From: an uncultured Bdellovibrionales bacterium
GTDB taxonomy: Bacteria; Bdellovibrionota; Bdellovibrionia; Bdellovibrionales; UBA1609
DNA length: 64,000 nt
Assembly: GCA_938002015.1 (NCBI GenBank)
Contig: CALLAU010000029.1
Coordinates: 6,169-70,168, forward strand
Reading direction: 5' to 3'
The number at the start of each line of letters is the position of its first letter. The first letter of the stretch is position 1. This document shows positions 5,162-62,406 of the stretch, piece after piece. Position numbers and translations under genes: made by a program. The notes below the pieces were generated by a model. The model saw nothing but the letters and a program-made list of their open reading frames with translations. It ran no database searches and was not told the origin of the DNA.

Positions 5162-6001
5162 TTAAAGATCACCATAAATATTTAAATCTATTAGGTAGTC
5201 ATCATCACAGATGCTCATAACAGAACCACCCGAAAGCTCTGAAAGCTCCATATACTTTAAACCAATAAAAGAAGGACTGCCTTCAGCATCTTGAGCTTTT
5301 CTACAAGCACTATCATCAACAACAATAGAGTGAACAGCAACTCTCTTAGAGCCACCAAACTTTGAAAAAACAGAGTCCATAAAAACAGAAGGAGAGTTTC
5401 TATTATTAAGTTTTTTATATTGAACAGAACTTAAACTCTGTTTTCCCCCAACACTTCTTTCATCTTCATCTGAAATAAGTATTACAGCTAAGGAAGCCCC
5501 ATCTCTAAAGCAGTTAGAGTTATCAGGCTCATTAATAGCTAAGTTCATAGCCTTAATACCCTGTTCATCATCACTCCAACCATGCCCAATCCACTCAATA
5601 GTTTTATTAAACACTCTTGGAATATTACTAGAGGCATTTACAATGTTTGAGTTGTTATTGGATTTCCAAAGGATAGTTCTTCCTTCATAGTAGCTAACAT
5701 CAGTTGTTGTAACACACATCTGCCAATCAATTCCCTCTAGGCTCATTTCATCTGCTAAATCACCTAGGTAACCTGCTAATTTTTCATTATCTTTATACAT
5801 TGAACCTGAATCATCTATTACTAACAGTATATCTAGGTCTGTATTTGTAAGATCGATATCATCATCACCGCTATCATCTGTGTCAGTATCTTCAACTGTA
5901 TCTGCATCAGTCGCTTTAAACTTACTTCCATTATCACACGCTAAAAAAATAACAAAAGTACCTAAAACACATAATCTTATCATATTCTTAAAAGTTTTCA
6001 T
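5162..6001 (-). CDS. von Willebrand factor A (vWA)-like lipoprotein
   Basis: Lipobox-like FLAC|D, acidic linker (DTDTDDSGDDDID), MIDAS-like DxSxS (LLVIDDSGSM). Confidence 0.7.
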   Translation of the reverse strand: MKTFKNMIRLCVLGTFVIFLACDNGSKFKATDADTVEDTDTDDSGDDDIDLTNTDLDILLVIDDSGSMYKDNEKLAGYLGDLADEMSLEGIDWQMCVTTTDVSYYEGRTILWKSNNNSNIVNASSNIPRVFNKTIEWIGHGWSDDEQGIKAMNLAINEPDNSNCFRDGASLAVILISDEDERSVGGKQSLSSVQYKKLNNRNSPSVFMDSVFSKFGGSKRVAVHSIVVDDSACRKAQDAEGSPSFIGLKYMELSELSGGSVMSICDDDYLIDLNIYGDL

Positions 6002-6267
6002 TATGAGATTAAATCGGCAACTTAAGGCTTTTGCTTTATATTGAGACTCCTTAAAACCAAAAAAAAAGGGCCTGTCTTATTTTGAGACAGTGCTCTACAG
6101 ACTGACAGCATTTTTAAAGAGCTTTTTTTTTAAGCAGTAAACTAGACCTCTTCTTTTAAGTTTTTAAAGATCGAGACTAAACATCTAAATTTGTTTGAGT
6201 TTTCTTAATTTTACGGTACCTTTTTAAGTGTTGGTTTTTCATCAATTTAATTATCTAAGGAGGAAAT

Positions 6268-6744
6268 ATGAAAAAACTATTTATCGCACTATGTGTGGCT
6301 GGACTTGTGGGCTGTTCATCAAGCAAAAAAGAGGTTGTTGATACAACTCAATCTGATGCTTCAAAAACTGCTCAAGAGGCTGCTGAGACTGCAAAAACTG
6401 CAACTGAAAACGCTAAAGACGCTATTGAAAATGCTGCTAAAGACTTAAAAGATGCTGCTGAAGATTTAAAGGAAAAAGCTACTGCTGAAACTCAAAACGC
6501 TTCAAATACAGCTGATTTTGGTGAGTACACTGGAACTGAGACTTCTAAGCTTACTTGCACTAACGGTGATGACGTAAGAACTATATCAGTTCTTGATGGC
6601 GCTGATGGTGGCTGTGGTGTTGTTTACAACAAAAATGGTGAGACTAAGACTGTAGCTGTTGCTAAGTACACAAAAGACCATTGCACTAAGGTACAAGATA
6701 AAATGAGAGCTAACCTAGAAGCTCCTGGTTTTACTTGCCAATAG
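6268..6744 (+). CDS. lipoprotein: Ala/Glu/Lys-rich helical region plus 4-Cys C-terminal domain
   Basis: SD aaggagga 7 nt upstream. Lipobox LVGC|SSS. GCT-rich, biased codon usage. Strong terminator downstream. Confidence 0.7.
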   Translation: MKKLFIALCVAGLVGCSSSKKEVVDTTQSDASKTAQEAAETAKTATENAKDAIENAAKDLKDAAEDLKEKATAETQNASNTADFGEYTGTETSKLTCTNGDDVRTISVLDGADGGCGVVYNKNGETKTVAVAKYTKDHCTKVQDKMRANLEAPGFTCQ

Positions 6745-6787
6745 TTTTAAAATAAATAATTCAAACACTCTCTTTCTAAAAGAGTTA

Positions 6788-6824
6788 AAAAACCGCTTTT
6801 ACTTTAAAAAGCGGTTTTTTTTTT
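6788..6824 (+). terminator. rho-independent terminator
   Basis: Perfect 10-bp stem AACCGCTTTT/AAAAGCGGTT (6791-6800 / 6807-6816) with 6-nt loop, followed by a T run to 6824. An A-run precedes it, so it could work in both directions. Confidence 0.85.
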
Positions 6825-6830
6825 CATCTT

Positions 6831-6856
6831 CTCTCCCTCTCCCTCTCCCTCTCCCT
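6831..6856. repeat. hexanucleotide microsatellite (CTCTCC)x4 + CT
   Basis: Read directly: ctctcc ctctcc ctctcc ctctcc ct. Pure polypyrimidine on the + strand, 7 nt after the terminator T-run. Confidence 0.95.
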
Positions 6857-7059
6857 ACTTACAACCTACTTAAAAAGCAGCTTTTTTACTTTCTACATTA
6901 CTGCACTCATTTTAAGCTTTATTGTGAGGATTCTTTTAGGATTTCTCATAGCCATTGCTTAAGACTCCTAGTATCAGACAATATAAGCCTCACTTGAATC
7001 TTTTTTTAATAGTTTAAGAAAAGAAAGCTACAAGTTTTAGTTTAAGGAAAATCTTATTT

Positions 7060-8001
7060 ATGCTTTTTATGATCTTAGGTTTTGCACTAGCTTGTTACGC
7101 TGTTATCGGTAATGACTCCATACAAACAATTGGAACTTTTCTAGCCTCAAATAAAAACAAGCCCTGGTGGGTTTTGTGGCTTTTTTTAGGAAGTATTATG
7201 ACTGCTGTACTTGTTACAGGCTGGGTTATAAATGGTGGAGACACATCCTATGGCCGCTTAAGTAAGATTCCTGAAACAACCATTCACTGGTGGCACATTA
7301 TCCCGATGATTGGACTCTTACTACTTACTAAAATTGGGATTCCTGTAAGTACGACCTTTATGGCCTTAAGTGTTTTTTCAGGCTCTATTGTTTTACAAAA
7401 AATCATTACAAAATCTCTTGTTGGATATGGCGTCGCTTTTTTAGCAACATTTATCATATGGCTTATTATTTATAAGTTTGAAAAACACATCTCTAAATCT
7501 GGCAACAAAAACCCTCACCACCTTTGGCTTGGAGCTCAGTGGGCCTCTACTGGCTTTCTTTGGAGTCAATGGCTCATGCAAGACCTTGCAAACATCTATG
7601 TCTTTGCTCCAAGAGTTGTCCCTCTTTGGTTTCTCATTCTCTCTGTTATCTTCTTACTCGCCTTACTAGCTTTTTTAGTAAAAGGGCAAGGTGGTAAAAT
7701 TCAAGAGATAGTACTTGTTAAAACAAACACTCTTGATATTAGGTCTGCAACCTTAATAAACCTCTTTTACGCACTTATTCTCTTTTACTTTAAGAATTTA
7801 AACAGTCTTCCTATGAGCACAACATGGGTTTTTCTAGGAACAATAGCAGGTAGAGAAATGATTCTCTCACTCATGATGAAACATAAATCTAGGCAACTTA
7901 CCTTAAAAGACATCAGCTCAGATGTTGGAAAAGCCACATTTGGACTTGTTATAAGTGTATCTCTAGCTTTAGCAGTAAAATATTTTTTTGCACTAGTGTG
8001 A
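7060..8001 (+). CDS. polytopic membrane protein, distant PiT/PHO4-superfamily-like transporter
   Basis: About 9 hydrophobic helices. GNDSIQTIGTF near the N-terminus plus PVSTTFMALSVFSG and PMSTTWVFLGTIAGR resemble the duplicated GANDVAN / P.STTH..(V/I)G motifs of PiT carriers. Weak. Confidence 0.45.
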   Translation: MLFMILGFALACYAVIGNDSIQTIGTFLASNKNKPWWVLWLFLGSIMTAVLVTGWVINGGDTSYGRLSKIPETTIHWWHIIPMIGLLLLTKIGIPVSTTFMALSVFSGSIVLQKIITKSLVGYGVAFLATFIIWLIIYKFEKHISKSGNKNPHHLWLGAQWASTGFLWSQWLMQDLANIYVFAPRVVPLWFLILSVIFLLALLAFLVKGQGGKIQEIVLVKTNTLDIRSATLINLFYALILFYFKNLNSLPMSTTWVFLGTIAGREMILSLMMKHKSRQLTLKDISSDVGKATFGLVISVSLALAVKYFFALV

Positions 8002-48753: not shown

Positions 48754-50115
48754 TTAGTATCTATAATGCTCAGGCTTATAAGGGCCAGCTTCTGCTAAAC
48801 CTAGATACTCAGACTGTTTATTACTTAAAGTTGAAATTTTAGCACCAACTTTTGATAAGTGAAGCATAGCAACTTTTTCATCTAAGTGTTTTGGAAGTCT
48901 GTAAAGACCAACCTCATACTTTCCTGGGTTCATGAAAAACTCCATTTGAGCAATCACTTGATTTGTAAATGAAGCACTCATTACAAATGATGGGTGACCA
49001 GTAGCGCAACCAAGATTTACTAATCTTCCTTTAGCAAGAACAATAATTGTTCTTCCATCTTTCATTGTATGAAGGTCAACTTGTGGTTTAATTTCCATAA
49101 CTTCTGAGTTTGCATTTAACCAAGCCATATCAATCTCAATATCAAAATGCCCAATATTACAAACAATCGCACCTGATTTCATTTTTTTAAAATGCTCTTC
49201 AGTTATGATATCGCAGCAACCTGTCGCTGTAACAAAAATGTCAGCTTTTTCACAAGCTTCTTCCATTGTTACAACTTCATAACCTTCCATTGCAGCTTGT
49301 AGAGCACAAATTGGATCGACTTCTGTTACTAAGATTCTTGCTGCTAAGCCTTTCATAGACTGAACAGAGCCTTTACCAACATCACCATAACCAGCAACAA
49401 CAACAACTTTACCTGCAATCATCACATCAGTTGCACGCTTAACAGCATCAACCAATGATTCTCTACATCCATAAAGGTTATCAAATTTTGATTTTGTTAC
49501 TGAATCATTTACGTTCATTGCAGGAATTTTTAATTTTCCTTCATCAAGCATTTTTTGTAAGTGATGTACACCAGTAGTAGTTTCTTCTGTAACACCCATT
49601 ACTTTATCAAGCATATGAACGTACTCAGGCTCGTGCATCATAGCAGTTAAATCACCACCATCATCTAAGATCATATTATAACCTTCTTCGCCCCATTTAA
49701 CAGTTTGTTCTAAGCACCATCTATACTCTTCTTCTGTCTCACCTTTCCAAGCAAAAACAGGAACTCCAGTAGCAGCAATTGCTACTGCGGCTTGGTCTTG
49801 AGTTGAGTAGATGTTACATGAACTCCATCTCACCTCTGCTCCAAGATGAGTCAAAGTTTCAATAAGAACTGCTGTTTGAATTGTCATATGAATGCAACCT
49901 GTTATTTTAGCACCTTTAAGAGGCTGTTGAGCACCATACTCTTCTCTTAAAGCCATTAAGCCTGGCATTTCAGTTTCTGCAATTTTAATTTCTTCTCTGC
50001 CCCATTTTGCTAAACGATCAAACTCTTCTTTAGAGTTCATTGCTGCTTCACACACTCTGTAATCTGGTGTTCCAGTTGCTGTAGTTGGGTTTGTAGATGT
50101 AGTCATAACTTCCAC
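48754..50115 (-). CDS. ahcY: adenosylhomocysteinase
   Basis: [31 protein letters not shown]-binding GYGDVGKG, C-terminal KPEHYRY. GTG start 6 nt after AAGGAGA. Confidence 0.95.
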
Positions 50116-50738: not shown

Positions 50739-52166
50739 GTGGTTCTTATCGAAACTCTAATTATAACTACATTTATAATTATATTAATATTTTCTCTACT
50801 TAACTTTATTGTCAGTGCGCTGATTTACTACACTTCAAAAAGAAAACTCTATTTAAGAGCAAGTTTTTTCTGGCTTGCATTGATTGTTAATTTTTTAGTT
50901 CAGTCAGCCGCTCAAAATGGAGAAACCGCAATTATTATGGGGTATGGATTCACGCTTATACCTTTAAACCTTCTATGCTACGCCTCTGTTTTCTTCGTAA
51001 ACACAAAATACCCGTGGAAAAGATTTGCTTCAATAGGAGTTTTAGGGGCTGCTACTTCTTACTTTTTATTACAATATGACTCTGTTTCTTTCTTATATAA
51101 ATCTCTCCCCTTAGCTTTCGCTACTGCTGCCCCGCTACTCTATGTAGCCCATCTCTTTTTGATTAGAAAAAGAGGCGAGGTCACTTCACTTATGAAATGT
51201 CATGCCGTCATTTTATTTGCCATCGTTATTCATTGTTTTAACTTTGCTTTTTTTAGAAATAATCCTGCAGCTCAACTCTGGGGATGGCCCGTTTCATATG
51301 CTGTATACCAGCTTTTAGCAGCCATTATTCCAGCCATGTCACTTGATTTCTATCACAGACAAGAAAAAGAGAGACTAACAGAAATCATTGATGAAAGAAC
51401 AAAAGAGTTAAACGACAGTAACAAGTTCTTAAGAACTGCCGTTAAGGAAAAGGATTTCTTATTTAAAACACTAGTACACGATGTATCAAACCCTCTTTCA
51501 GTAATCCAAGGACGAGTTAAGATCTTTCAAAGAAACAAGAATGTTGAAAAATTCGTAACTGTTGTTGATAGTATGTCGAATAGGATCAGTAGCTTAATTA
51601 GCCAAGTAAGAGCTTTTGAAAAAGCTATGAGTGAAGATGGGAAAATTGAAGTTGAAGAGATCGATCTACACGCTTGCATGACAGACATCATTCAAATGTT
51701 TGAAGATAAGTTAGAGAAGAAAAATGTTACTCTTGACTATAATGCTGATGATTTCAAAGGTATTTCAATATATTCAGAAGAAAAGATTTTCTCAAATTCA
51801 ATTATACCAAATATTATTAATAACGCCATTAAGTTTACTCATGATGGCGGCTGCATCAAAATACGTACTCTTATGGAAAGTAATGAACAATATGTGATTT
51901 CAATTAGTGATGAAGGAATTGGGATACCTCCAGAAACTTTAAAAAAGATTTTTGACTTCGATGCAAAAACATCTCGCCTAGGAACTTCTGGTGAAAAAGG
52001 AACTGGCTTTGGCCTTCCAATAATAAAACAACTCATTGATAAAAGTGGTGGCAGTATATGGATAGAGTCTGTAGAAGAAAATGAAAACTCACCTGGGTCA
52101 ACAACTGTTAACCTCTCCTTTAAGTCTAAACAAAGAGATGCTATTTTAATGCCAATTGCCGCTTGA
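50739..52166 (+). CDS. sensor histidine kinase with ~7-TM membrane-embedded N-terminal module
   Basis: About seven hydrophobic helices with no sizeable periplasmic loop. H-box LVHDVSNPL, N-box NNAIKFT, G1 DEGIGI, G2 GTGFGL. GTG start. Confidence 0.8.
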   Translation: MVLIETLIITTFIIILIFSLLNFIVSALIYYTSKRKLYLRASFFWLALIVNFLVQSAAQNGETAIIMGYGFTLIPLNLLCYASVFFVNTKYPWKRFASIGVLGAATSYFLLQYDSVSFLYKSLPLAFATAAPLLYVAHLFLIRKRGEVTSLMKCHAVILFAIVIHCFNFAFFRNNPAAQLWGWPVSYAVYQLLAAIIPAMSLDFYHRQEKERLTEIIDERTKELNDSNKFLRTAVKEKDFLFKTLVHDVSNPLSVIQGRVKIFQRNKNVEKFVTVVDSMSNRISSLISQVRAFEKAMSEDGKIEVEEIDLHACMTDIIQMFEDKLEKKNVTLDYNADDFKGISIYSEEKIFSNSIIPNIINNAIKFTHDGGCIKIRTLMESNEQYVISISDEGIGIPPETLKKIFDFDAKTSRLGTSGEKGTGFGLPIIKQLIDKSGGSIWIESVEENENSPGSTTVNLSFKSKQRDAILMPIAA

Positions 52167-52213
52167 TGTCTAAAGTAGAGTTTTATTAATAAAATCTTAA
52201 CACATGCTCTCTT

Positions 52214-52237
52214 CCCCTATTTAAAGATAAATAGGGG
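52214..52237 (+). terminator. possible terminator hairpin after the kinase gene (no T tract)
   Basis: Perfect 10-bp stem CCCCTATTTA/TAAATAGGGG with 4-nt loop, 48 nt after the stop codon. The trailing sequence is not T-rich. Confidence 0.35.
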
Positions 52238-52348
52238 CCTAAATTAAGTCACCGTTATTCAAAAATGAGTGAACTTTTATTTTGAAAAAAACTCCACCTT
52301 CGCAAACTAAATAATTTTTATTTGCTATTCAAAGCCTTTTATACTTAT

Positions 52349-52381
52349 CCTCTTTGTAAACAAAAATAATTTACAAAGAGG
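52349..52381 (+). promoter_or_regulatory. SD-sequestering hairpin in the 5' leader of the HDO-like gene
   Basis: Perfect 12-bp stem CCTCTTTGTAAA (52349-52360) / TTTACAAAGAGG (52370-52381), 9-nt loop. The 3' arm contains most of the SD AAGAGGAG (52376-52383). ATG at 52390. Confidence 0.65.
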
Positions 52382-52389
52382 AGACTGAA

Positions 52390-53049
52390 ATGATTACAAA
52401 TAAACTCACACAGCCAATGGCGCTGATGGAAGAAAAACTTAACCATATGAACATTGAAAATCCAGAAGTATACGCTGATTTTCTTGCACAAACATATTAC
52501 TACGTATCGCATTCAACAAGACTTCTTGCTGTTGGAGCTGGCCTTATGAAACAGAGTGAGGGCCAGTACTTTAGACGTTTCATAAAGCACATTACTGAAG
52601 AGTCTAACCATGAGATTCTAGCAAAACATGACCTTGAAGAACTTGGCTACAACCTTGAAGACTTCCCTGAAAGGCCTGAAACAAAAGCTCTATGGGAAGC
52701 TCAGTACTATAAAATAATGCAACAAGATCCAATGTATTTCATGGGCTATATATTAGCACTTGAGCAATTTGCATGCGTTTACTTCCCTGATTTTCTTCAA
52801 AGAATTGAAGCTGCTTATAAAGGAAAGGCTATTAGGTTTGTTAAACTACACGCTGAGGAAGATCCTGATCATGTAGAAAAAGCAATTAAATTTATTGAAT
52901 CACTTTCACAAGAAAGAGTTTTAAAGGTTGCTGAAAACATTGAGCAAACAGCTATGTCATACTCACAAATGTGTGAGGCATGCAGTGCACCTTCAAGTTT
53001 AAATATTGGTGTTGAATTAAAAACTCCTCAACCGACAATGAGCCTGTAA
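52390..53049 (+). CDS. heme-oxygenase-like diiron oxidase/oxygenase (HDO; Haem_oxygenas_2/CADD/UndA-like) family protein
   Basis: All-helical 219 aa. Ligand-like pattern in order: E-x2-H (TEESNHE), E (ALEQF), H-x3-D-x2-H (HAEEDPDH). Confidence 0.6.
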   Translation: MITNKLTQPMALMEEKLNHMNIENPEVYADFLAQTYYYVSHSTRLLAVGAGLMKQSEGQYFRRFIKHITEESNHEILAKHDLEELGYNLEDFPERPETKALWEAQYYKIMQQDPMYFMGYILALEQFACVYFPDFLQRIEAAYKGKAIRFVKLHAEEDPDHVEKAIKFIESLSQERVLKVAENIEQTAMSYSQMCEACSAPSSLNIGVELKTPQPTMSL

Positions 53050-53050
53050 A

Positions 53051-53770
53051 ATGCAAGTAGACTTACAAAGTCACTTATTAAAAAAAAGTACTGTTCTAAA
53101 CAAAAGAACAGTACTTGATTTAAGTTTTTTTGATGTAAACACCTCTATTTCTTTTACAAAGGATGACAGGCAAGAGGCTTTGTATAACTTTTGGAAATCT
53201 GCATGGGAAAAGTCTTTTTCTGATTTAGGCTATAAAGAGAGGCAGCAACTTTTTAGTGATGATTTTTACGCAAAAAGAATTCTAGCTTTTTTTGATAAAG
53301 ACAAGCCTGTAGGCTGCATATTTCTTGAATCTTATGATCTTTCTATTGAGTCACACAGGCACAGTAGATATCTTCAAACATTTCCTAAAGATATGTTTGA
53401 TGTCCTTTTAAGTAAAGGTCTTAGAAAAGCTTATGCACTATCAAATTTAGCAATAGATCCTGAATGGAGAAAGAGCCAAACTGACTTACAACTTTCACAA
53501 CTTTTAACGTCCATCGGTGTATGGAAAGCCTGTCAAGATCTTGGTGATGTTGTATTAGGCTGCACAAGAAATGACAGAAAGGTCAATAATATACTCGAAA
53601 ATCATAACTCAACTAAGTATGCATCAGATGAAAGATATAACTGTAGTGTGGATTTTACATATATAGATTTAAAGCAAGCTAAAGTCTTTCCAGATAAAGA
53701 CTTAATGGATGCCTGCTTATATTTTACAAGTGGTCACTTTTTTAATATTTCAAACAACGCTACGGCTTAA
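53051..53770 (+). CDS. hypothetical protein, possibly a GNAT/LuxI/thermostable-hemolysin-like acyltransferase fold
   Basis: Its start lies 1 nt after the upstream stop (taa a atg). LSNLAIDPEWRK ... LGCTRNDRKVNNILENH loosely resembles acyl-CoA/ACP-dependent N-acyltransferase cores. The family assignment is weak. Confidence 0.45.
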   Translation: MQVDLQSHLLKKSTVLNKRTVLDLSFFDVNTSISFTKDDRQEALYNFWKSAWEKSFSDLGYKERQQLFSDDFYAKRILAFFDKDKPVGCIFLESYDLSIESHRHSRYLQTFPKDMFDVLLSKGLRKAYALSNLAIDPEWRKSQTDLQLSQLLTSIGVWKACQDLGDVVLGCTRNDRKVNNILENHNSTKYASDERYNCSVDFTYIDLKQAKVFPDKDLMDACLYFTSGHFFNISNNATA

Positions 53771-53780
53771 ATTTAAGCCG
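53763..53780. other. perfect 18-bp palindrome containing the stop codons of two convergent genes
   Basis: CGGCTTAAATTTAAGCCG. The + gene ends gct TAA (53768-53770); the - gene ends gct TAA on the other strand (53773-53775). Confidence 0.9.
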
Positions 53781-54138
53781 CATCCGCCAAACTCTCATTG
53801 ATACGGTCAATAAGAGCAAATATATCAACAGGTTTTGTCAGCAGCCCCCCCATTGAATGCGCAAACTCTAAACCTTGCATGTTATTCTCCCCTGTTACTA
53901 GGAAGAAAGGAACTCCAGGAATATTTTGGTTAACGTGCTTAAGTAAATCCTCACCTGACACCTCACCCATATTATGATCACTAATAATAAGATCAAAACT
54001 GTTTTGCTCTAATGCTTCAAACGCTTTCTCTCCAGATTCGCAGGCCTTAACTTCAAAACCCTCTTCTTCAATAAGTTCTTTATACATCTCAAGGAGATCA
54101 GCTTCATCATCAACTATTAATATCTTTTTATCACTCAT
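53773..54138 (-). CDS. single-domain (CheY-like) response regulator
   Basis: ILIVDDEADLLEMY..., phospho-acceptor context LIISDHNM, ...LTKP. 121 aa. Confidence 0.85.
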   Translation of the reverse strand: MSDKKILIVDDEADLLEMYKELIEEEGFEVKACESGEKAFEALEQNSFDLIISDHNMGEVSGEDLLKHVNQNIPGVPFFLVTGENNMQGLEFAHSMGGLLTKPVDIFALIDRINESLADAA

Positions 54139-54196
54139 AAAGTCTAAACGGCATATTTAGAAAAGAGCTTAAGGGTAAATCAAGCCGTGCACCCTA

Positions 54197-54213
54197 TGTT
54201 TAGAAAAGTTTAA
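54197..54213 (+). promoter_or_regulatory. 17-nt box TGTTTAGAAAAGTTTAA (copy A); a related 10-mer TTTAGAAAAG lies at 54156-54165
   Basis: Identical to the reverse complement of 56206-56222. Lies in the divergent promoter region between two response-regulator genes. Confidence 0.6.
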
Positions 54214-54333
54214 TTTTAAGGTTAAACCTTCCTTTACAAAACACAGCATTACCCCCTCTTTTGGCTAAGTTTGATAAGAAACATTTAACTCAATTGCACT
54301 AATAAATATGGCTACAGTACCGATAAAAACTAC

Positions 54334-55020
54334 ATGGAAAAAGAACTTGAAAAGCTAAGAGTATTATTAATTGATGATGAAGAAGAACTTACTGAACAAA
54401 TTTGTGATCATTTAGAGCTAGAGGGTTTTGTAACAAAGGGGTTAAACTCACCAGAAGAAACACTCACTTTCATCGAAGAGTTTCGACCAGATATTGTTGT
54501 ACTTGACCGCCTTATGCCCGTTAAAGATGGTATAGATGTTTTATCTGACATAAGAAAACAAAGCTCTAAACCTAATGTTCCTGTAATCATGTTAACAGCA
54601 TGTACAACAAAATTTGACAAGCTTTGGGCATTTAACTCAGGTGTAGATGATTACCTTTCTAAGCCTTTTGATATTGATGAGCTTGTACTAAGGCTTAAGG
54701 CATTAACAAAAAGGTTTAATATGAACGTTAAGCTTCAAAAGGAAATAATCCAAGACTCTTTTAGTGTTGAAGTCAAAGGACAGTATATTACTCTAGGAGA
54801 TAAAGAAGTTCCCCTTACATCCTTTGAATTTGAATTCCTAAGTAAGCTTATTGAAAAAAAAGGCGGCACACTTTCAAATGAAGACATTCAAATGCAGCTA
54901 ACTAGCAATAACTCAAGCTTAGAAAAAATTCGAATCGACATTACAAACTTAAAAAATAAATTAGACTATGTTGGCAATAAAATAAAAGAAGTTAGAGGGG
55001 TGGGATATCGATTCTCTTAA
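54334..55020 (+). CDS. OmpR/PhoB-family response regulator (REC + winged helix)
   Basis: VLLIDDEEEL, VVLDRLMP, KPFDIDEL. C-terminal ...VRGVGYRFS. Confidence 0.85.
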   Translation: MEKELEKLRVLLIDDEEELTEQICDHLELEGFVTKGLNSPEETLTFIEEFRPDIVVLDRLMPVKDGIDVLSDIRKQSSKPNVPVIMLTACTTKFDKLWAFNSGVDDYLSKPFDIDELVLRLKALTKRFNMNVKLQKEIIQDSFSVEVKGQYITLGDKEVPLTSFEFEFLSKLIEKKGGTLSNEDIQMQLTSNNSSLEKIRIDITNLKNKLDYVGNKIKEVRGVGYRFS

Positions 55021-55075
55021 TAAAAATGATCTATCATTTAAAAAAATAGACGATTTAAATTATTTACTAGACAAT

Positions 55076-56137
55076 GTGACTGATAGTTACTGGGAGTGGA
55101 ACCTGGCAACCAAGCAAAGTTATATGTCCCCTCAATTTTGGAATATGTTTGGTTATAGTCCTGAAAGCATCGACGATGAAATTAAAAAATGGAACGAGAT
55201 GATATTTCCTGAAGACTTGATCACACTTAAACAAAACTTAAAAAAGCATTTTAAAACAAAAGGTCAACATCAGATAAAGCAAGAAATTAGATGTAGACAC
55301 AGAAATGGCTCCATAGTTTGGGTTGTTTGTGTTGGAAAAGTTATTGAATGGTCAGATGAGGGACGCCCCGTTCGAATGATAGGAACACATACTGATGTAA
55401 CTCAAATTAAAAAAATTCAAAAAAACTTAGACAACAACTTAAGACTTGCAGCATTAGGAGAAATGGCTGGAAGCATTTCACATGAAATCAACAACCCTCT
55501 TGCAATTATAAATATCTCGCTAGATTGGTTAAGCAAAGTGGTCTCACAACCCAACTTTGATGTAGAAAAAGTTGTTACAAAAATTCAGACCGCAAAAAAG
55601 AATATCACCAGAGCTTCTTCTATTATTGAAGGGCTAAAGCTGTACACAGGAAACTTACACAATGAGCTTCGAAAAGAACATAAGGCCTCAAGGATAATGG
55701 ACATCACTTTGTCACTACTTGCATCTAGAATAGACAAACACCACATTGAAGTTATCAATCAAGTCGATAGTGACCTTACTCTATATTGCGATGAGTCACA
55801 GATTTCCTATGTCTTTCATAGCCTAATTTCAAACTCCATTGATGCTTTAAATGGCGGCTTTAAGAAACGACTAGAGGTTTCATCTACAGTTATTGATGGC
55901 CAAGCTGTAATACGATTTACAGATACCGGGGGCGGCCCTGGGCTTGCTCAAAGTGCAACATCAAAAGAGCATCCCCTATTAAGTACAACCATCTCAAGCG
56001 GCTCAAGGCTTGGCCTAAGCGTTTCTAAATCTATTCTAGAAAACCACATGGGAAGTTTGGAGTTAGTGAATAATTCAAAGACCACTGTCTTTGAAATAAG
56101 ACTGCCAATGAGTGCAGCTAAAAACTGCGCAGCTTAA
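55076..56137 (+). CDS. cytoplasmic PAS/PAC sensor histidine kinase
   Basis: PAS/PAC (WEWNL...YMSPQFWNMFGY, RHRNGSIVWV), H-box SHEINNPLAI, N-box ISNSIDA, degenerate G boxes. GTG start; the start position is uncertain. Confidence 0.75.
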   Translation: MTDSYWEWNLATKQSYMSPQFWNMFGYSPESIDDEIKKWNEMIFPEDLITLKQNLKKHFKTKGQHQIKQEIRCRHRNGSIVWVVCVGKVIEWSDEGRPVRMIGTHTDVTQIKKIQKNLDNNLRLAALGEMAGSISHEINNPLAIINISLDWLSKVVSQPNFDVEKVVTKIQTAKKNITRASSIIEGLKLYTGNLHNELRKEHKASRIMDITLSLLASRIDKHHIEVINQVDSDLTLYCDESQISYVFHSLISNSIDALNGGFKKRLEVSSTVIDGQAVIRFTDTGGGPGLAQSATSKEHPLLSTTISSGSRLGLSVSKSILENHMGSLELVNNSKTTVFEIRLPMSAAKNCAA

Positions 56138-56168
56138 AATATGAGATAAGTTTTTAAAATAATTTATT

Positions 56169-56195
56169 GAATTGTAAATTATCTTTTTACAATTC
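56169..56195 (+). terminator. hairpin after the PAS kinase gene (possible terminator or protein-binding palindrome)
   Basis: Perfect 10-bp arms GAATTGTAAA / TTTACAATTC, 7-nt loop, 32 nt after the stop. No T tract. Confidence 0.4.
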
Positions 56196-56205
56196 ATTCA
56201 GTTAG

Positions 56206-56222
56206 TTAAACTTTTCTAAACA
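56206..56222 (-). promoter_or_regulatory. 17-nt box TGTTTAGAAAAGTTTAA (copy B, on the minus strand)
   Basis: The + strand reads TTAAACTTTTCTAAACA. It lies 93 bp upstream of the second OmpR-type regulator gene. Confidence 0.6.
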
Positions 56223-56314
56223 AGTCCAGTTTATTTTTTGCAAACCATGATAAATACTATTAGTTTATATATTATGAACATATCGCATTTAAACATATTA
56301 CCAAGGATGGCTTT

Positions 56315-57010
56315 ATGATCACAGAAACAATAAACAACGAAAATGTTAAAATTTTAATAGTAGATGATGAGAAAGAACTTGCAGGGCAAATATCTGATTC
56401 ACTAGAACTTGAGGGCTTTAAAACAAGAACTCTTAACAACCCCCTTCTCATCAGATCTTACATAGAAGATTTTGACCCAAGTATTATTCTCTTAGATAAA
56501 TTGATGCCCGAAAAAGACGGTATTGATGTCTTAAAGGAAATTAGAAGTGATGATTTTGCTAAATTCACTCCAATCATTATGCTCACAGCTTGCGCCGGAA
56601 AGTTTGATAAAATATGGGCTTTTAAATCAGGAGCTGATGATTATATCTGCAAGCCATTTGATATTGATGAACTGATTGAGAGAGTTTATGCGATCAAAAG
56701 ACGAAGCGCTCAAAGCCAAAAGAAGGTAATTGGTTATAATGGGCTTGAAATAGCTATTAGAGGTCAGTTTGTCTCGGTTGGTAATACGGAAGTGAATCTT
56801 ACTGTTACTGAATTTAATCTTTTAAAAGAGCTCATGAAAAGAAAAGGCGAAGTTTTGTCCAGAAAGGAAATTTGCCTGCAAGTTCTAGGAAAAGAATACA
56901 CCGTTGAAAGAACTGTAGATGTTCATATTGTTTCTTTAAGAAGAAAACTTAAACATGTTGGTGAAAAAATAAAAACCGTTCGAGGGGTTGGCTACAGGCT
57001 GGTCTCTTAA
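56315..57010 (+). CDS. OmpR/PhoB-family response regulator, paralogue of 54334..55020
   Basis: ILIVDDEKEL, ILLDKLMPEKDGIDVL, MLTACAGKFDKIWAFKSGADDYICKPFDIDEL, VRGVGYRLVS. Long identical stretches with the other OmpR-type protein. Confidence 0.85.
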   Translation: MITETINNENVKILIVDDEKELAGQISDSLELEGFKTRTLNNPLLIRSYIEDFDPSIILLDKLMPEKDGIDVLKEIRSDDFAKFTPIIMLTACAGKFDKIWAFKSGADDYICKPFDIDELIERVYAIKRRSAQSQKKVIGYNGLEIAIRGQFVSVGNTEVNLTVTEFNLLKELMKRKGEVLSRKEICLQVLGKEYTVERTVDVHIVSLRRKLKHVGEKIKTVRGVGYRLVS

Positions 57011-57028
57011 TTTAAGCTCTACTAATAG

Positions 57029-57058
57029 CATGAGGCTGAAAAATAAAACAGCCTCATG
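57029..57058. terminator. hairpin between convergent genes (possible bidirectional terminator)
   Basis: Perfect 10-bp stem CATGAGGCTG/CAGCCTCATG with A-rich 10-nt loop. The right arm contains the stop codon of the minus-strand gene. Confidence 0.5.
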
Positions 57059-57725
57059 AATTGCCTTGTGAAACAGGCATAATTATTTGAACCTTAAACC
57101 TCTCACCTGCTTTTGCTTCTATATTAAACTGACCATCAAAATTTTCGACAATCAATTTACAAAAAAACAAACCCAAGCCTAAACCTTCAGCCTCTTTTCC
57201 AATGTTGCAAAAAGGCTTTATTTGTCTAACTCCTTCCTTTAGTACACTTCCATTATCCAAAAGTTCTACAGTAAAAAACTCACCTCTTTTTCTAGATTTA
57301 ATTTTTAGCTCTAAGTTTTTATCACCAAATTTTTGAGAGTTACAAAAAAGCTCATAAAAAACTGATACAAATATTCTATCTTGAAAGACAACAGGAACTT
57401 CTTCTACAAGCTCTACATTAATACCTTTAAGTTCAGTCTTCTCTAAATTACAGGAAACACACTCCTTTAAAGAAACGGGCTTTTCTGATTTTTCTAACAA
57501 GAACTGACTAAACCTAAGGGTACCACTAATTATTTCTTGAAGTCTTAACGACGACGATTGAATAAAATCTATAGACTCATTAAATTCACTCCTAAGACTC
57601 TCACTAACAATTGCCTCTTCTTGCTTAAGCTTATTAGTGAAAAACTTAATATGCCGAGTAGGCGCTTCTATTTCATGACAAAAAGTGGAGACCAGGTCCC
57701 TTAAAAGATCATGCCTCACATTCAC
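57054..57725 (-). CDS. sensor-less histidine kinase core (DHp + HATPase only)
   Basis: H-box FCHEIEAPTRHI (SHDL..PLR type), N-box NSQKFG, G boxes DNGS / GLGLGL. Its GTG start overlaps the upstream TAG by 1 nt (taGtg). Confidence 0.7.
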   Translation of the reverse strand: MNVRHDLLRDLVSTFCHEIEAPTRHIKFFTNKLKQEEAIVSESLRSEFNESIDFIQSSSLRLQEIISGTLRFSQFLLEKSEKPVSLKECVSCNLEKTELKGINVELVEEVPVVFQDRIFVSVFYELFCNSQKFGDKNLELKIKSRKRGEFFTVELLDNGSVLKEGVRQIKPFCNIGKEAEGLGLGLFFCKLIVENFDGQFNIEAKAGERFKVQIIMPVSQGNS

Positions 57726-59224
57726 TAACCTAACTGGCCTCGATCCTCTAAGCAGAAATCAATAAGTTTTGCAGTATCAAATGGCTTTTGAAACAATGTA
57801 TAGTAGACATTGTCATTTAAGCTCTCTATTTCAGCTGCGAATTTTAAAGAATCCCCAATCAAAGCTATTTCGGGGTATGTCTCAAGCTGACTTACAATCG
57901 ATATAAAGTTATCCAATTCAAAACCGCTAATATCTGTATCTAAAACAATTTTCCCAATATCCTCATTCTTTCTTAATTTTAACAGTGCTTCACTATAGTC
58001 TGAGGCCTCATAGACTAAACAATTCTTTTCTTCAAGAATTGTGGCAAACAAAGCTCTCATCTTCTTCTTGTCATCAACAACGAGAACCTTTCTTTTTAGC
58101 GGCTGAAAACTTTTGGCATCCTTTGGTATAGATATCCTTACCCTTGTGTTACCTTCTTCACTTAAACCAAAGTTCATTTTTCCTGAGTGAGACTCAATAA
58201 TAGACTTACTGATGCTAAGGCCAAGGCCAGTACCTCCATCAGCTTTCTTAGTTGTAAAAAATGGAGTGTAAATCTTTTCCTGTAACTCGCTACTAATGCC
58301 ACGACCAGAGTCAATAATATTTATCTCAAAATAATTCACACTTTCTGTAGAGGTTATCTTAATCCACTTGTCTTCAAATTTTAATACTTCATCAACAGCA
58401 TTGTTGATTATGTTTACCAAGACTTGGATGATTTCTCCTGGACGACAATCAATGTAGTTTCCTTTAGAAATAGGTCCAATATCAATCTTAATTCTATTAG
58501 ATCTAATTTTTCCAAAACAAATCTCAACTGCTTCATCTACTAAAGTTTTAAAATCAACTCTTTCAAAAGGGTCAAGTTCTGAATTTCTACTATACCTAGT
58601 TAAACTCGCTGTTATTTTACTCATCCGCTTAACTGTAGTTTCTGCCTTCTCAAGTAAGTTAACCGCATCTTCTCCGGTCAACTTACCCATTAAGGCTTTC
58701 TTCTTCATATTTGCAAGGAGGAGTGATAACAAAGAGATTGGGTTATTAACCTCATGAGCCACTCCACTAACCAGCTCTCCAAGCATAGACATTTTAATTG
58801 ATTTTAATAACTTAGCTTGCTGCTCCATGAAAATGCTCTCAGTTTTTTTTCTCTCAAGAGCATAACGAATCGATTTATCCAGTGTATAAAAACTTAAATC
58901 TTCTTTGATTATGTACTCATCTACACCTAAAGCTTGAGCTTCTCTATCAACTGCCTCATGACCAAAGCTTGTTAAAAGAATAAATGGGTCTCCACAACCC
59001 TTCTCCTTAACCTCTTTGATTAAATCAATACCACTGTCTTGGCCTAAGTTATAGTCTACGATGTGGACATCATATTCATTGGATAGTATTTTTGACACGG
59101 CCTCAGATTTAGTTTTAACCCAGGATAACTTATACTGATGAAAACTGTTTTTCGCGAACAAACTCTTTAGAATCTCAAACTCTACTTCACTATCATCAAC
59201 AATTAGTACTTTGCGTGTTACCAT
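57725..59224 (-). CDS. hybrid REC - histidine kinase - REC protein
   Basis: N-terminal REC (VLIVDDSEVE, HIVDYNL), H-box AHEVNNPISL, N-box NNAVDE, G boxes DSGRGIS / GGTGLGL, C-terminal REC-like domain (VLVVDDKKKM, VLDTDI, QKPFD). Confidence 0.8.
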   Translation of the reverse strand: MVTRKVLIVDDSEVEFEILKSLFAKNSFHQYKLSWVKTKSEAVSKILSNEYDVHIVDYNLGQDSGIDLIKEVKEKGCGDPFILLTSFGHEAVDREAQALGVDEYIIKEDLSFYTLDKSIRYALERKKTESIFMEQQAKLLKSIKMSMLGELVSGVAHEVNNPISLLSLLLANMKKKALMGKLTGEDAVNLLEKAETTVKRMSKITASLTRYSRNSELDPFERVDFKTLVDEAVEICFGKIRSNRIKIDIGPISKGNYIDCRPGEIIQVLVNIINNAVDEVLKFEDKWIKITSTESVNYFEINIIDSGRGISSELQEKIYTPFFTTKKADGGTGLGLSISKSIIESHSGKMNFGLSEEGNTRVRISIPKDAKSFQPLKRKVLVVDDKKKMRALFATILEEKNCLVYEASDYSEALLKLRKNEDIGKIVLDTDISGFELDNFISIVSQLETYPEIALIGDSLKFAAEIESLNDNVYYTLFQKPFDTAKLIDFCLEDRGQLG

Positions 59225-59280
59225 AAAAGCATTCTAATGAAAGTTTGAATTAAAACAACAATTTAAATAAAATATGTTTA

Positions 59281-59700
59281 CTAAAAGTGCTTGTCAATTA
59301 TGCTCTTAAGACTTTCCGGGTCAACAGGTTTTACTAGATAGTCTCTGACAAAATCATAACCCATAGTACGCTCTTTATCTTCATGTAACTGTGAAGACGT
59401 AAACATCATAACAACAACAGAATCATAAAATTTATCATTTAAAGCTCTTAGTTTCTCAAATTCTTTTAAGAACTCAAATCCGTTCATTTTAGGCATATTC
59501 ACATCTAAAAGTATCAGTGTAGGAGGAAAGCGATCCCCAAACTCAGCCTTATGCTCGTCGTAACTTGCCAAGATACTCATTGCTTCTTCACCATCTCTTG
59601 CTTCAAAAATTAAATCTGCAATTTGGTTTTGCTTGATAGACCACTTAGCAATATAGCGATCAGCTTCTGTATCATCAACTATCATAACAGATTTTAACAT
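59281..59700 (-). CDS. single-domain response regulator
   Basis: VMIVDDTEADR, LILLDVNMPKMNGFEFL, LVKP. 139 aa. Confidence 0.85.
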   Translation of the reverse strand: MLKSVMIVDDTEADRYIAKWSIKQNQIADLIFEARDGEEAMSILASYDEHKAEFGDRFPPTLILLDVNMPKMNGFEFLKEFEKLRALNDKFYDSVVVMMFTSSQLHEDKERTMGYDFVRDYLVKPVDPESLKSIIDKHF

Positions 59701-59716
59701 GTAAAAATTATAAACA

Positions 59717-61543
59717 TTACATATTTAAAGGCAAGCAAATAACAAACTTAGAACCTTCAAACTCAGTACTTTCAAAATAAATCCTGCCCTTTAAAGCTTC
59801 TATATGCCTCTTAACCAGATAAAGCCCCAGACCAGAGCCTCTTTGTTCGTGGTGAAAACGCTGAAACATTTGAAAGACTTTAGAGTGTTGAGTTTTTGAT
59901 ATACCAAGTCCATTATCTTTGACCGTAACGAGAAGTTTATCAGTCTTTAAATCTTTTTCCACACTTATCTCTAAAGTAGATACCTCTTTATCATGATCTC
60001 TATACTTAATGGCATTGGAAACTAGGTTATGAATCACTTGCCTTAACCTAACAGGATTAGTCAAAACTGATTCTACTTGCAAATTTAATGTCACGATAAC
60101 TTGTGCTTCATAGTTTAAATCGCTTATGACTTCACTTATTTCTTTTTTAAAAACAAACTGATCTTGAGTTTCCTCTAAATGCGCTGACTTGCTTAAGCTT
60201 AGTAAATCGTTGATCAAACGCCTCAGCCTATCAGTTGTTTGGGATATTTTAATTAAATTGTTATTTACTTCTTCATAATCTTTGCTTCTCATTTGAGATT
60301 GAGCAATAAAAGATAGGCCTTTAATAGATGCTAGTGGAGCACCTAAATCATGGGAGATACGGTAGTTAAACTGTATCAATTCCTCATTTAATTTTCTTAA
60401 CTCCTCTTGCGCCTTCATCTGCTCATTCATATCAAACGCGCAAAGCACAACTCCTGTAACATTACCAAACTGATCATAATAAGGAGTTTTATCAGTCCTT
60501 ATCCAGTTCATATCGCCAAACTTATCCTCTACCTTTTCAATAATACCAAGTTTTGGCCGCCCAGATCGGATCACTTCCATATCATCCTCATGGTACTTAT
60601 CGCACATGACTTTATCATAAAAGTCCGAACTCTTTCTTCCGTTCATATCTTCTGGTTTAAGACCTTTCATATCGGCAGCATACTTATTTACTCGCACCAT
60701 AATGTCATCAGCACTTTTATGCATAACAAGTCCTGGAATAGCATCGAATACATTCTGTAATTCACGACTACTATGTTGATACTTAAGCTCATTTTCCTTC
60801 TCTAAAGTAATGTCCTTATTTATTCCTATCATGAGGCTTTTTTTTGATTGCCCATCAGATACGAATGTACCTACAGCTTTAATATACCGAACAGCCTGGT
60901 CACTCCCTCTAATAATTCTAAATTCTGTATCAAAAACTTCATTATTCTCAACAGCAGCCTCTAACTGCGTAAACACAATATCTCGATCTTCAGGAAATAT
61001 ACTGCCTTTCCAGAGATCATAATTTACTAGATCACTTGATTTTTCATGGCCATATATTTTCTTCATATTCTCATCCCAGATAAGCCGGTCAGATTCCAAA
61101 TTCCACTCCCAAAAACCAATACTAGCAGCATTTAAAACAACTGATATTTTCTGATTCGCTAAAGCTAACTGTGAGGAGAGTTTTTTTTGAGAGTCAATTT
61201 CTTGAAAAATCCCCTCTAATCCAACTAGCTTACTCTCTTTAAAAACTGGCTGCCCAAGAGCCCTTACCCACTTAACTTTGCCTGACTTAGTTAATATCTG
61301 AAGCTCAACGTCCCACGGTTTTTTATCTGCTATTGCTTGGTTAATACATTTTCGAATAACAGGCCTATGCTCAGGAATATAATAGTTGATACCTTCTTCA
61401 ACTAAAATCTTTGTTCCTCTTTTAACCTCATGAACATCATAAACAGCGTCACTCCAAAATAAGCTGTTTTCATTTATGTCTAAAAACCAAGTCCCTATTT
61501 TGGCAACTTCTTCTAGTTTTGTGATTATTCTTTGAGAGTTCAA
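59717..61543 (-). CDS. multi-PAS/PAC cytoplasmic sensor histidine kinase
   Basis: Three PAS/PAC-like segments (WFLDINENSLFWS, WEWNLESDRLIWD, third before residue 380), H-box SHDLGAPLASIKG, N-box NAIKY, G boxes DNGLGIS / GSGLGL. TTG start 7 nt after AGGAG. Confidence 0.8.
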   Translation of the reverse strand: MNSQRIITKLEEVAKIGTWFLDINENSLFWSDAVYDVHEVKRGTKILVEEGINYYIPEHRPVIRKCINQAIADKKPWDVELQILTKSGKVKWVRALGQPVFKESKLVGLEGIFQEIDSQKKLSSQLALANQKISVVLNAASIGFWEWNLESDRLIWDENMKKIYGHEKSSDLVNYDLWKGSIFPEDRDIVFTQLEAAVENNEVFDTEFRIIRGSDQAVRYIKAVGTFVSDGQSKKSLMIGINKDITLEKENELKYQHSSRELQNVFDAIPGLVMHKSADDIMVRVNKYAADMKGLKPEDMNGRKSSDFYDKVMCDKYHEDDMEVIRSGRPKLGIIEKVEDKFGDMNWIRTDKTPYYDQFGNVTGVVLCAFDMNEQMKAQEELRKLNEELIQFNYRISHDLGAPLASIKGLSFIAQSQMRSKDYEEVNNNLIKISQTTDRLRRLINDLLSLSKSAHLEETQDQFVFKKEISEVISDLNYEAQVIVTLNLQVESVLTNPVRLRQVIHNLVSNAIKYRDHDKEVSTLEISVEKDLKTDKLLVTVKDNGLGISKTQHSKVFQMFQRFHHEQRGSGLGLYLVKRHIEALKGRIYFESTEFEGSKFVICLPLNM

Positions 61544-61626: not shown

Positions 61627-62406
61627 CTAAAATGTAATTACTTCTTCTCCATCTAGAGTCATAAACTCATAACCAGAGTCTGTTATAAGCATTGTATGCT
61701 CAAACTGAGCTGAATTCGTGCCATCAGCTGTCAGGTAGTACTTAATATCTGAGCCTTCAATGCTATGCTCAGAGTAAGGCTTTGAATTCATATTAATCAT
61801 AGGCTCTACAGTCACACAGGTCCATGGCCTAAACATCTCTCCCTTTCCTTTTTTACCAAAAGAAGGAACAAAGGGGTCCTTATGGAAAGTCGTTCCTATG
61901 CCGTGACCACCAATCTCTCTTACAGCGAAGTAGCCCTGTTTCATAACATATTTATTTACTGCAAATCCCACATCACCAGTTTTTCCAAAAGGTTTGAGCT
62001 CATTTATACCTTTATGCATAGCAGTATAAGCCACCTCTGTTAGCTTACGGTCTTCTTCTGAAACCTCTCCCACAAAAAAAGTTGCCGATGTATCTCCGTG
62101 ATACCCACCAGCTACAATAGAGGTCACATCTACATTTATACTATCGCCTTCTTTTAAAGTATAATCTGTTGGAAGACCATGGCAGATACAATCATTAACA
62201 GACGTACAAACAGACTTAGGAAAGCCCTTATAGCCTAAAGGAGCTGGCTTAGCGTCATTTGAAAGCGTAAAGTCATAAACAATCTTATCAATTTCATTTG
62301 TAGTGATTCCTGGCTTAATAAATGGCTTTACATGTTTAAGAGTTCTCGCAGCAAGTCTACCTGCTTTCTCCATTCCTTGCACAAAACTTGCTCTTCCTGC
62401 TTCCAT
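61627..62406 (-). CDS. map: type I methionine aminopeptidase
   Basis: MEKAGRLAA, CHG.P, DVT...GY.GD, GHGIG..FH, EPM, QFEHT: the pita-bread metal-ligand motifs in order. Confidence 0.9.
   Translation of the reverse strand: MEAGRASFVQGMEKAGRLAARTLKHVKPFIKPGITTNEIDKIVYDFTLSNDAKPAPLGYKGFPKSVCTSVNDCICHGLPTDYTLKEGDSINVDVTSIVAGGYHGDTSATFFVGEVSEEDRKLTEVAYTAMHKGINELKPFGKTGDVGFAVNKYVMKQGYFAVREIGGHGIGTTFHKDPFVPSFGKKGKGEMFRPWTCVTVEPMINMNSKPYSEHSIEGSDIKYYLTADGTNSAQFEHTMLITDSGYEFMTLDGEEVITF

Follow-up and report, generated by a model that had tools for sequence, protein, structure and literature searches.

Two adjacent genes, here called ORF A and ORF B (ORF, open reading frame), were analysed in a 64,000-nucleotide stretch of DNA from an uncultured Bdellovibrionales bacterium (contig CALLAU010000029.1; the window). 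ORF A is predicted from sequence and model to be a heme-oxygenase-like diiron oxidase/oxygenase (HDO) of family PF14518 that binds a diiron centre, and ORF B is predicted to have a GNAT fold closest to that of FeeM. Together with the gene of an adjacent sensor histidine kinase, whose membrane domain has up to seven transmembrane segments (7-TM kinase), the A-B operon could well form an autoinducer-like module of small-molecule synthase and receptor, a reading to which we give about even weight. The signalling role of the module is a strong candidate, put forward on the conserved linkage described below. The elements that carry this reading are as follows.

52390..53049, plus strand: ORF A, HDO (219 aa; ATG at 52390, TAA at 53047-53049)
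53051..53770, plus strand: ORF B, protein with a predicted FeeM/LuxI-like GNAT fold (239 aa; ATG at 53051)
50739..52166, plus strand: 7-TM sensor histidine kinase (475 aa; HisKA and HATPase_c by Pfam)
53773..54138, minus strand: stand-alone receiver, REC (121 aa; Pfam Response_reg, E 1e-21)
53761..53782, no strand assigned: terminator-like hairpin where ORF B and the receiver gene converge, with a stem that covers the ORF B stop codon

A first-pass annotation of this DNA had described the two ORFs, the gap between them and their motifs, and all of these were borne out. Its remark that the gene combination had not been recognised as a described system agrees with our literature search, which found no published description of the combination, of the ORF A family that contains the structure 3dde, or of the family to which ORF B belongs (family B). 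A single nucleotide separates the ORF A stop codon from the ORF B start codon, and the two genes are predicted to be translationally coupled in the window. A strong Shine-Dalgarno sequence (AAGAGGAG) lies 6 nt upstream of the ORF A ATG, and the hairpin at 53761..53782 is probably the end of the A-B operon.

An HDO and a FeeM-like protein encoded side by side

ORF A matched PF14518 (Haem_oxygenas_2) at 40.2 bits, above the gathering cutoff of 28.9, and PF03070 (TENA/THI-4/PQQC) at 17.5 bits, below the cutoff of 22. PF14518 was present in 120/120 ORF A homologues among the matches listed. The HDOs SznF and RohS are assigned to PF14518 (PMC13133933), and the criteria that define an HDO were drawn from PMC7848743 and PMC13133933. 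Alignment of 22 homologues (down to 36% identity) showed that E70, E71, H74, E125, H154, D158 and H161, which lie in the motifs TEESNHE (residues 69-75), ALEQF (123-127) and HAEEDPDH (154-161), are invariant, as are Y37, Y38, H41, S42, R63, H67, Q105, Y106, K108 and Y120; no cysteine, the catalytic residue of TenA-type enzymes, is invariant across this set. The predicted ligands are E71 (or E70), H74, E125, H154, D158 and H161, a putative 3-His/3-carboxylate site. In the AlphaFold2 (AF2) model, which is all-helical with 8 helices (pLDDT 92.9), E70/E71 and H74 are predicted on helix 55-84 (core helix 1), E125 on helix 114-143 (core helix 2), and H154, D158 and H161 on core helix 3 (residues 149-170), which is broken at residues 156-159. 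This break recalls core helix 3 of SznF and UndA, which is conformationally mobile (PMC7848743).

The only sequence relative of ORF A in the Protein Data Bank (PDB) was 3dde (E 2e-10 with the single sequence, 5e-13 with the family profile), and the EExxH, E and HxxxDxxH ligands of ORF A all aligned with the same residues in it. The 3dde protein (Sden_3740 of Shewanella denitrificans, entered as 'TENA/THI-4 protein, DUF with heme oxygenase-like fold') is a structural-genomics protein with no assigned function; it is ~21-23% identical to ORF A, is its best fold match, and conserves both the ligand motifs and the His/Tyr residues of auxiliary helix 2. Weak matches of the family profile were seen to UndA and its homologue 3oql, with lHaeeDpdH aligned to MHAQYDDAH of UndA, and no TenA, PqqC or CADD chain in the PDB was matched by this profile. 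A Foldseek search with the ORF A model returned 3dde (best), UndA, TenA proteins, CADD and BesC with similar scores, and also the heme oxygenase HmuO; the fold therefore cannot separate an HDO from TenA, and the argument for an HDO rests on the ligands and profiles. The first-pass annotation had called ORF A an HDO-type diiron enzyme, and the PF14518 match above threshold, the invariant ligands and the alignment with 3dde and UndA uphold that call. Placement with TenA/PqqC, which it had named in advance as speaking against the call, was not seen, and the ligands align to the metal-motif residues of 3dde. Membership of ORF A in TenA/PqqC was rejected on the sub-threshold PF03070 score, the PF14518 score above threshold and the lack of any matched TenA or PqqC chain.

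According to a proposal in PMC7848743, auxiliary helix 2 of N-oxygenating HDOs has a beta-turn with an additional carboxylate, which is missing from the C-H-activating enzymes UndA and BesC. Auxiliary helix 2 of ORF A (residues 25-52) is predicted by AF2 to be continuous and holds the invariant residues Y37, Y38, H41 and S42 and no invariant Asp or Glu, so that the additional carboxylate of SznF and RohS (3-His/4-carboxylate) has no counterpart in ORF A. Because this carboxylate is absent, C-H activation is favoured over N-oxygenation, and ORF A appears, from alignment and model, to resemble the UndA/BesC class. UndA and BesC share with ORF A the heme-oxygenase-like helical fold (TM-score ~0.70-0.74 for UndA), the ExxH / E / HxxxDxxH ligand layout and the lack of the extra carboxylate, a lack tied to substrate-triggered C-H chemistry (PMC7848743). 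UndA differs in that it is ~16% identical to ORF A and lies in PF03070-type sequence space, whereas ORF A lies in PF14518; moreover, unlike the A-B pair, this Pseudomonas 1-undecene synthase works alone on free fatty acids, with no linked acyltransferase or kinase.

ORF B carries the motifs LSNLAIDPEWRK (residues 130-141) and GCTRNDRKVNNILE (residues 170-183). Only sub-threshold matches were obtained against Pfam (the FeeM family PF21926 at 13.8 bits versus a cutoff of 27, and Acetyltransf_9), no NCBIfam family was matched at E <= 1, including the exosortase-associated acyltransferase model, and no meaningful match came from searching the PDB by sequence or profile. A word-seeded homologue search found 1 relative with ORF B and 5 with the family profile, and an exhaustive HMMER search found 417 family B representatives at E <= 1e-3 (94 at E <= 1e-10). 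Pfam recognised none of the top family B members; there were weak FeeM matches in just 2 of 60 members and a weak Acetyltransf_5 match in one, and Autoind_synth matched neither ORF B nor family B members. The AF2 model of ORF B, built on 60 family members (pLDDT 92.6), has GNAT topology, and the order of its secondary-structure elements fits a GNAT (beta1-alpha-alpha-beta2-4-alpha3-beta5-alpha4-beta6-7). Foldseek gave 205 PDB matches at E <= 1e-3, and among those listed all were GNAT, FeeM or LuxI proteins. FeeM (2g0b) ranked best (E 7.5e-7, TM-score 0.70 on the target, 8% identity in the structural alignment), followed by generic GNATs and then by the N-acylhomoserine lactone (AHL) synthases EsaI, RpaI, BjaI, LasI and TofI, which were weaker than FeeM (E 2-6e-5, TM-score 0.42-0.54).

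The canonical motif A of GNATs is a Q/R-x-x-G-x-G/A pyrophosphate-binding loop that follows beta4. In ORF B this position reads IDPEWRKSQTD rather than Q/RxxGxG/A, and the family consensus is P-x-W-R-K-S-x-T; the nearly invariant residues of family B are W48, D70, Y107, R140 and R173, of which just R140 lies in the post-beta4 loop. By sequence, the loop appears to resemble that of FeeM/LuxI-type enzymes, which depend on acyl carrier protein (ACP), more than that of acetyl-coenzyme A GNATs. We take ORF B to be a GNAT-fold protein, as modelled, that is closest to FeeM and belongs to a family uncovered by Pfam and NCBIfam. The likeness to GNAT, LuxI or thermostable-hemolysin-type acyltransferases suggested in the first pass thus held at the level of the fold, with FeeM closest, and failed as membership of any curated FeeM, LuxI or hemolysin family. 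The similarity to FeeM is structural only, PF21926 being sub-threshold, and no pairing with an HDO is known for the Fee or Nas systems. N-acyl amino acid synthases were reportedly linked genomically to a PEP-CTERM/exosortase sensory system by Craig et al. in 2011 (J Bacteriol 193:5707).

More than 200 ORF A homologues were found, nearly all from Bdellovibrionota sources. A scan with one genome per species gave 60 HDO loci, 51 of which were labelled Bdellovibrio, Bacteriovorax or Pseudobdellovibrio-type; the remainder came from Myxococcota, Methylocystis, a Zetaproteobacterium and unclassified Proteobacteria. Gene neighbourhoods were counted in 64 related loci, with hidden Markov models of both families run on all locus ORFs. 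Family B stood immediately beside the HDO in 49 of these loci. It was upstream in 36, mostly with an overlap of the two genes, downstream in 12, which is the arrangement of the window, and fused to the HDO in 1. Natural B-HDO fusions were seen twice, in the metagenomic protein P0125 (family B at 2-209, PF14518 at 250-396) and at 5958..7334 of locus L045. Chance adjacency was rejected as an explanation. The reverse test began with three family B proteins whose discovery did not depend on the HDO: two had an HDO alongside, and the third had a fatty-acid desaturase in the HDO position and no HDO within its sequence at hand. A lack of adjacency in relatives, of the two genes to each other or to signalling genes, had been named in the first pass as speaking against the cassette; the adjacency was found as counted here, and the linkage to signalling genes was strong. 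Some metagenome-assembled genomes carry two separate modules (L033 and L058 in one, L018 and L020 in another).

Candidate receptors and exchangeable partner enzymes

In the kinase encoded upstream of ORF A, the HisKA and HATPase_c matches are confined to residues 238-462, and the N-terminal ~200 residues matched no Pfam model. Hydropathy analysis of this N-terminal domain suggested up to 7 transmembrane segments ~30 aa apart with very short loops, and the domain carries a conserved FNFAFFRMxPxAQLWGWPVAYxLYQ motif. A 7-TM kinase of this kind lies <=1.5 kb from the HDO in 27 of the 64 loci, on either side and either strand, and none was found in ~620 kb of distal flank of the same loci. Kinases of any type are 6.4-fold denser within 2 kb of the HDO (0.185/kb) than further out (0.029/kb). 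A reciprocal scan of metagenome contigs with the kinase membrane domain alone, using a narrow alignment that reaches only close relatives, returned 7 loci, with an HDO within ~1 kb in 6/6 assessable cases. The 7-TM sensor domain occurs only beside the HDO module, and the linkage of the biosynthetic genes with a putative receptor, which is looked for in an autoinducer module, is conserved and specific. On these sequence comparisons, the kinase at 50739..52166 is proposed as the candidate cognate receptor.

A small REC gene often stands next to the 7-TM kinase, as in loci L002, L007, L008, L010-L012, L069, L071 and L074, and the conserved signalling partner is the upstream 7-TM kinase in particular, possibly joined by the small receiver at 53773..54138. 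The first-pass annotation had tied the whole surrounding island of sensors to the cassette; this stood for the upstream 7-TM kinase, and perhaps for the small receiver, and did not stand for the remaining genes up to 61543, which are shared with locus L001 only. In locus L015 (1157-5487), a single B-HDO pair has a 7-TM kinase gene on each side, and the two kinases are paralogues.

Each part of the module comes from a known superfamily, and the combination of a synthase with a receptor kinase is already known. In CqsA/CqsS, LqsA/LqsS, LuxM/LuxN and AinS/AinR, the synthase gene stands beside a histidine kinase gene, and the kinase uses its multi-pass membrane domain to bind a self-made, lipophilic signal; receptor kinases of the CqsS, LqsS, LuxN and AinR type have no periplasmic domain. 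The module resembles these pairs, judged from its genes, in that putative synthase genes adjoin a kinase with a multi-pass membrane domain. It differs in its enzymes, CqsA being a pyridoxal phosphate-dependent acyl-CoA transferase and LuxM/AinS a distinct AHL synthase family, and in its receptor domain, which matches no Pfam family. The logic would nevertheless be analogous to that of CqsA/CqsS and LuxM/LuxN.

An unbiased census of neighbouring genes returned a third recurrent family, famC, with members of 164-262 aa and the invariant residues E, Y, Q, Y, L and E. No Pfam model covers famC; weak PAS_9 matches were seen in 3 of 19 members, and sequence and profile searches against the PDB gave nothing meaningful. 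The famC gene is immediately downstream of the HDO in 24 of the 64 loci, strictly exclusive of the 27 loci with a 7-TM kinase, and is often beside a gene of XRE-type helix-turn-helix (HTH) protein or a ~350-aa kinase and a response regulator. We regard famC as a candidate alternative, soluble receptor; 51 of the 64 loci hold either a 7-TM kinase or famC. Besides 21 more loci, famC is found at:

L047 8426-9166, minus strand
L040 10542-11036, minus strand
L078 4669-5421, minus strand

The enzyme beside the HDO varies. In loci L003, L005 and L009 the HDO is followed, instead of by B, by a distant HpaB-type flavin monooxygenase (~205 bits versus an equivalog cutoff of 480), and in L007, L008, L010 and L013 its partner is a class I S-adenosylmethionine (SAM)-dependent methyltransferase. 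A membrane fatty-acid desaturase is additionally present in L021 and L060, and a desaturase is also found in L076. The order of genes is the same in L011/L012 (HDO-B-kinase-REC) and in L007/L008/L010 (HDO-methyltransferase-kinase-REC), and between the two groups the HDOs are 66-71% and the kinases 74-75% identical; among fairly close relatives, therefore, the middle gene has been exchanged and the HDO and kinase retained. The HDO stays constant, with ORF B as one among several partners that can replace each other. Two loci (L076 3675-5972 and L077 2384-4669) encode an XRE-HTH protein, family B, a fatty-acid desaturase and famC, with no HDO within the sequence at hand, and in some lineages the soluble HDO may be replaced by a membrane diiron desaturase.

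Signalling module or regulated enzyme pair

The HDO coupled to an acyltransferase likely makes an unusual lipid-like molecule. Under the synthase/receptor reading, ORF B would transfer an acyl group, probably a fatty acyl group from acyl-ACP or acyl-coenzyme A (acyl-CoA) in the manner of FeeM and LuxI-type enzymes, to a small precursor at an amine or hydroxyl group, and the HDO, using its diiron centre and O2, would oxidise the same scaffold by desaturation, hydroxylation or oxidative decarboxylation (compare UndA and BesC). The lipophilic product would partition into membranes and be bound by the kinase inside its loop-less 7-TM bundle, or be detected by famC, and the 7-TM kinase would then phosphorylate one or more nearby receiver proteins. 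Since it is the middle enzyme that changes, next to a constant HDO and kinase, a common core is probably built or processed by the HDO and diversified by the partner; the O2-dependent chemistry of the HDO would act on this core, which the partner would acylate, methylate or hydroxylate. The substrate may be an acyl chain, to judge from the co-occurring fatty-acid desaturases and the UndA-like set of ligands. More speculatively, the head group may be aromatic or derived from an amino acid, given the HpaB and methyltransferase alternatives; the N-acyl-tyrosine chemistry of FeeM is the precedent here.

A broader reading is offered tentatively, and with less confidence than the synthase/receptor reading of this locus: the module would be the first example of a new family of cell-cell or predator-prey signalling with an HDO that makes the signal core, an exchangeable tailoring enzyme (FeeM-like acyltransferase, methyltransferase, HpaB-type hydroxylase or fatty-acid desaturase) and either a 7-TM kinase or the PAS-like famC as receptor. 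The family would be common among predatory Bdellovibrionota, with scattered members in Myxococcota and a few Proteobacteria, and the tailoring would give rise to lineage-specific dialects. We know of no established self-produced signalling chemistry in Bdellovibrio-like predators, and no report of such chemistry in Bdellovibrio involving these genes was found in the literature. The locus provides a concrete three-gene signalling hypothesis for these predators. If the hypothesis is true, it would place an uncharacterised HDO clade, with the orphan structure 3dde among its members, in a biological setting, add a new GNAT family of ~400 representatives outside the curated models, and add a new ligand-binding membrane domain to those of sensor kinases. 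The unusual chemistry known from HDOs is growing fast and includes terminal alkenes and alkynes, nitriles and N-nitroso groups.

Several observations weigh against the synthase/receptor reading. The roles of ORF A, ORF B and the kinase are predicted from fold, motifs and gene neighbourhood, and the adjacency of enzymes and kinase would be explained equally well if the kinase responded to another cue and regulated the enzymes. No positive-feedback regulatory site was found at the locus, and ~13 of the 64 loci, many of them short contigs, show neither a 7-TM kinase nor famC. Methylocystis sp. MJC1 (an isolate with a complete chromosome) has an overlapping B-HDO pair with no signalling neighbour, which makes the enzyme pair the portable core. 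Replacement of B by a methyltransferase or hydroxylase is awkward if B makes the substrate of the HDO. Finally, ORF B falls below all curated acyltransferase thresholds and has WRKSQTD in place of the canonical GNAT motif, and for these reasons its acyl donor, and even a transferase activity, are putative.

The strongest rival, which we consider possible and on balance rather unlikely, is that the 7-TM kinase senses an external, prey-derived or envelope cue and controls expression of A and B, which would modify a membrane lipoamino acid (an N-acyl amino acid or ornithine-lipid-like compound) or detoxify or degrade a foreign compound, for example the acyl signal of another organism, the product being no self-made signal. 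Kinases are commonly encoded beside the genes under their control, and this one has no extracytoplasmic domain, like intramembrane-sensing kinases. Membrane lipids are products of OlsB/FeeM-type GNAT N-acyltransferases, and one family B member had a weak Acetyltransf_5 match; the desaturases in some loci and the Methylocystis pair without sensors are consistent with the same model. On the other side, a sensor domain found only beside the module, with an HDO in every assessable locus of the reciprocal scan, shows more specificity than a general envelope sensor would be expected to have. The tailoring enzyme varies while HDO and kinase are kept, and the receptor alternates between 7-TM kinase and famC, both hallmarks of signal/receptor pairs, and the neighbourhood census shows no recurring transporter or catabolic genes.

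It is improbable that ORF A is instead a self-sacrificing or amino-acid-consuming synthase of a cofactor or precursor, like CADD, which makes para-aminobenzoate, with incidental neighbours. The fold is similar to that of CADD (TM-score ~0.66-0.69), and the invariant Tyr37, Tyr38 and Lys108 recall the Tyr/Lys chemistry proposed for that enzyme. However, CADD is unmatched by sequence, with the family profile as well, none of the neighbourhoods contains folate or cofactor genes, the B fusions and the dedicated kinase are left unexplained, and a distribution mostly within Bdellovibrionota is an ill fit for a housekeeping role. A non-metal enzyme of thiamin salvage or PQQ biosynthesis of the TenA/PqqC type, with coincidental E/H/D motifs, is less probable still: the fold is common to TenA proteins, the PF03070 match is weak and some homologues are annotated 'thiaminase' or 'PqqC' at source, yet all six metal ligands and no cysteine are invariant, no TenA or PqqC chain was matched by sequence or profile, and neither thiamin nor pqq genes were found nearby.

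Surroundings of the locus

Beyond the small receiver gene, the following two-component genes were assigned by Pfam.

54334..55020: OmpR-type response regulator
55076..56137: PAS kinase
56315..57010: OmpR-type response regulator
57054..57725, minus strand: HATPase-only protein, 223 aa
57725..59224, minus strand: REC-HisKA-HATPase-REC hybrid kinase
59281..59700: REC
59717..61543: PAS-PAS kinase

Besides the A-B pair, 50739..61543 holds two-component genes only (5 kinase-type and 5 receiver-type ORFs), in agreement with the first-pass description of a pair surrounded by nothing other than kinases and regulators. The two-component genes of 54334..61543 are syntenic in the closest relative (L001) only and not in the other 60-odd loci, and this context is lineage-specific. 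The HATPase-only gene lies directly downstream of the hybrid kinase gene with a 1-base overlap, which resembles a split or accessory kinase arrangement. The outer flanks are housekeeping genes, S-adenosyl-L-homocysteine (AdoHcy) hydrolase at 48754..50115 and methionine aminopeptidase at 61627..62406. The AdoHcy hydrolase gene (minus strand) is ~600 nt upstream of the 7-TM kinase gene, divergent from it and probably housekeeping; the enzyme touches SAM-dependent chemistry, and methyltransferase partners exist in related loci. GC content is uniform across the region at ~0.34, and the region is therefore no compositional island. PADLOC gave no relevant defence-system match, the Csn2 and PDC-M43B matches being weak or generic to the HATPase domain.

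An Rfam scan of the window returned zero RNA families, and there is therefore no riboswitch upstream of the A-B operon; a sigma-70 scan found no promoter upstream of it. Three perfect inverted repeats were seen around the operon. The first, a 13-nt repeat (TCCTCTTTGTAAA / TTTACAAAGAGGA) with 9 nt spacing at 52348-52382, overlaps the HDO Shine-Dalgarno sequence with its right arm and could be an operator or a hairpin that sequesters the ribosome-binding site; in L001 the TTTGTAAAC half is kept and the inverted repeat is not conserved. The second, a 10-bp hairpin (CCCCTATTTA / TAAATAGGGG) at 52214-52237, lies 48 nt past the kinase stop codon, has no T-tract and may set the A-B operon apart from the transcript of the kinase gene. 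The third, a 12-bp stem with a 7-nt loop (AAGTACTGTTCT...AGAACAGTACTT) at 53086-53116, is just past the A/B junction, within the poorly conserved first 22 codons of ORF B, and may modulate translational coupling or messenger RNA stability. Elsewhere, the window encodes a 436-aa leucine-rich-repeat protein with a hydrophobic, lipoprotein-like N-terminus (62519-63829, minus strand) and contains a 1946-aa ORF (27969-33809, minus strand).

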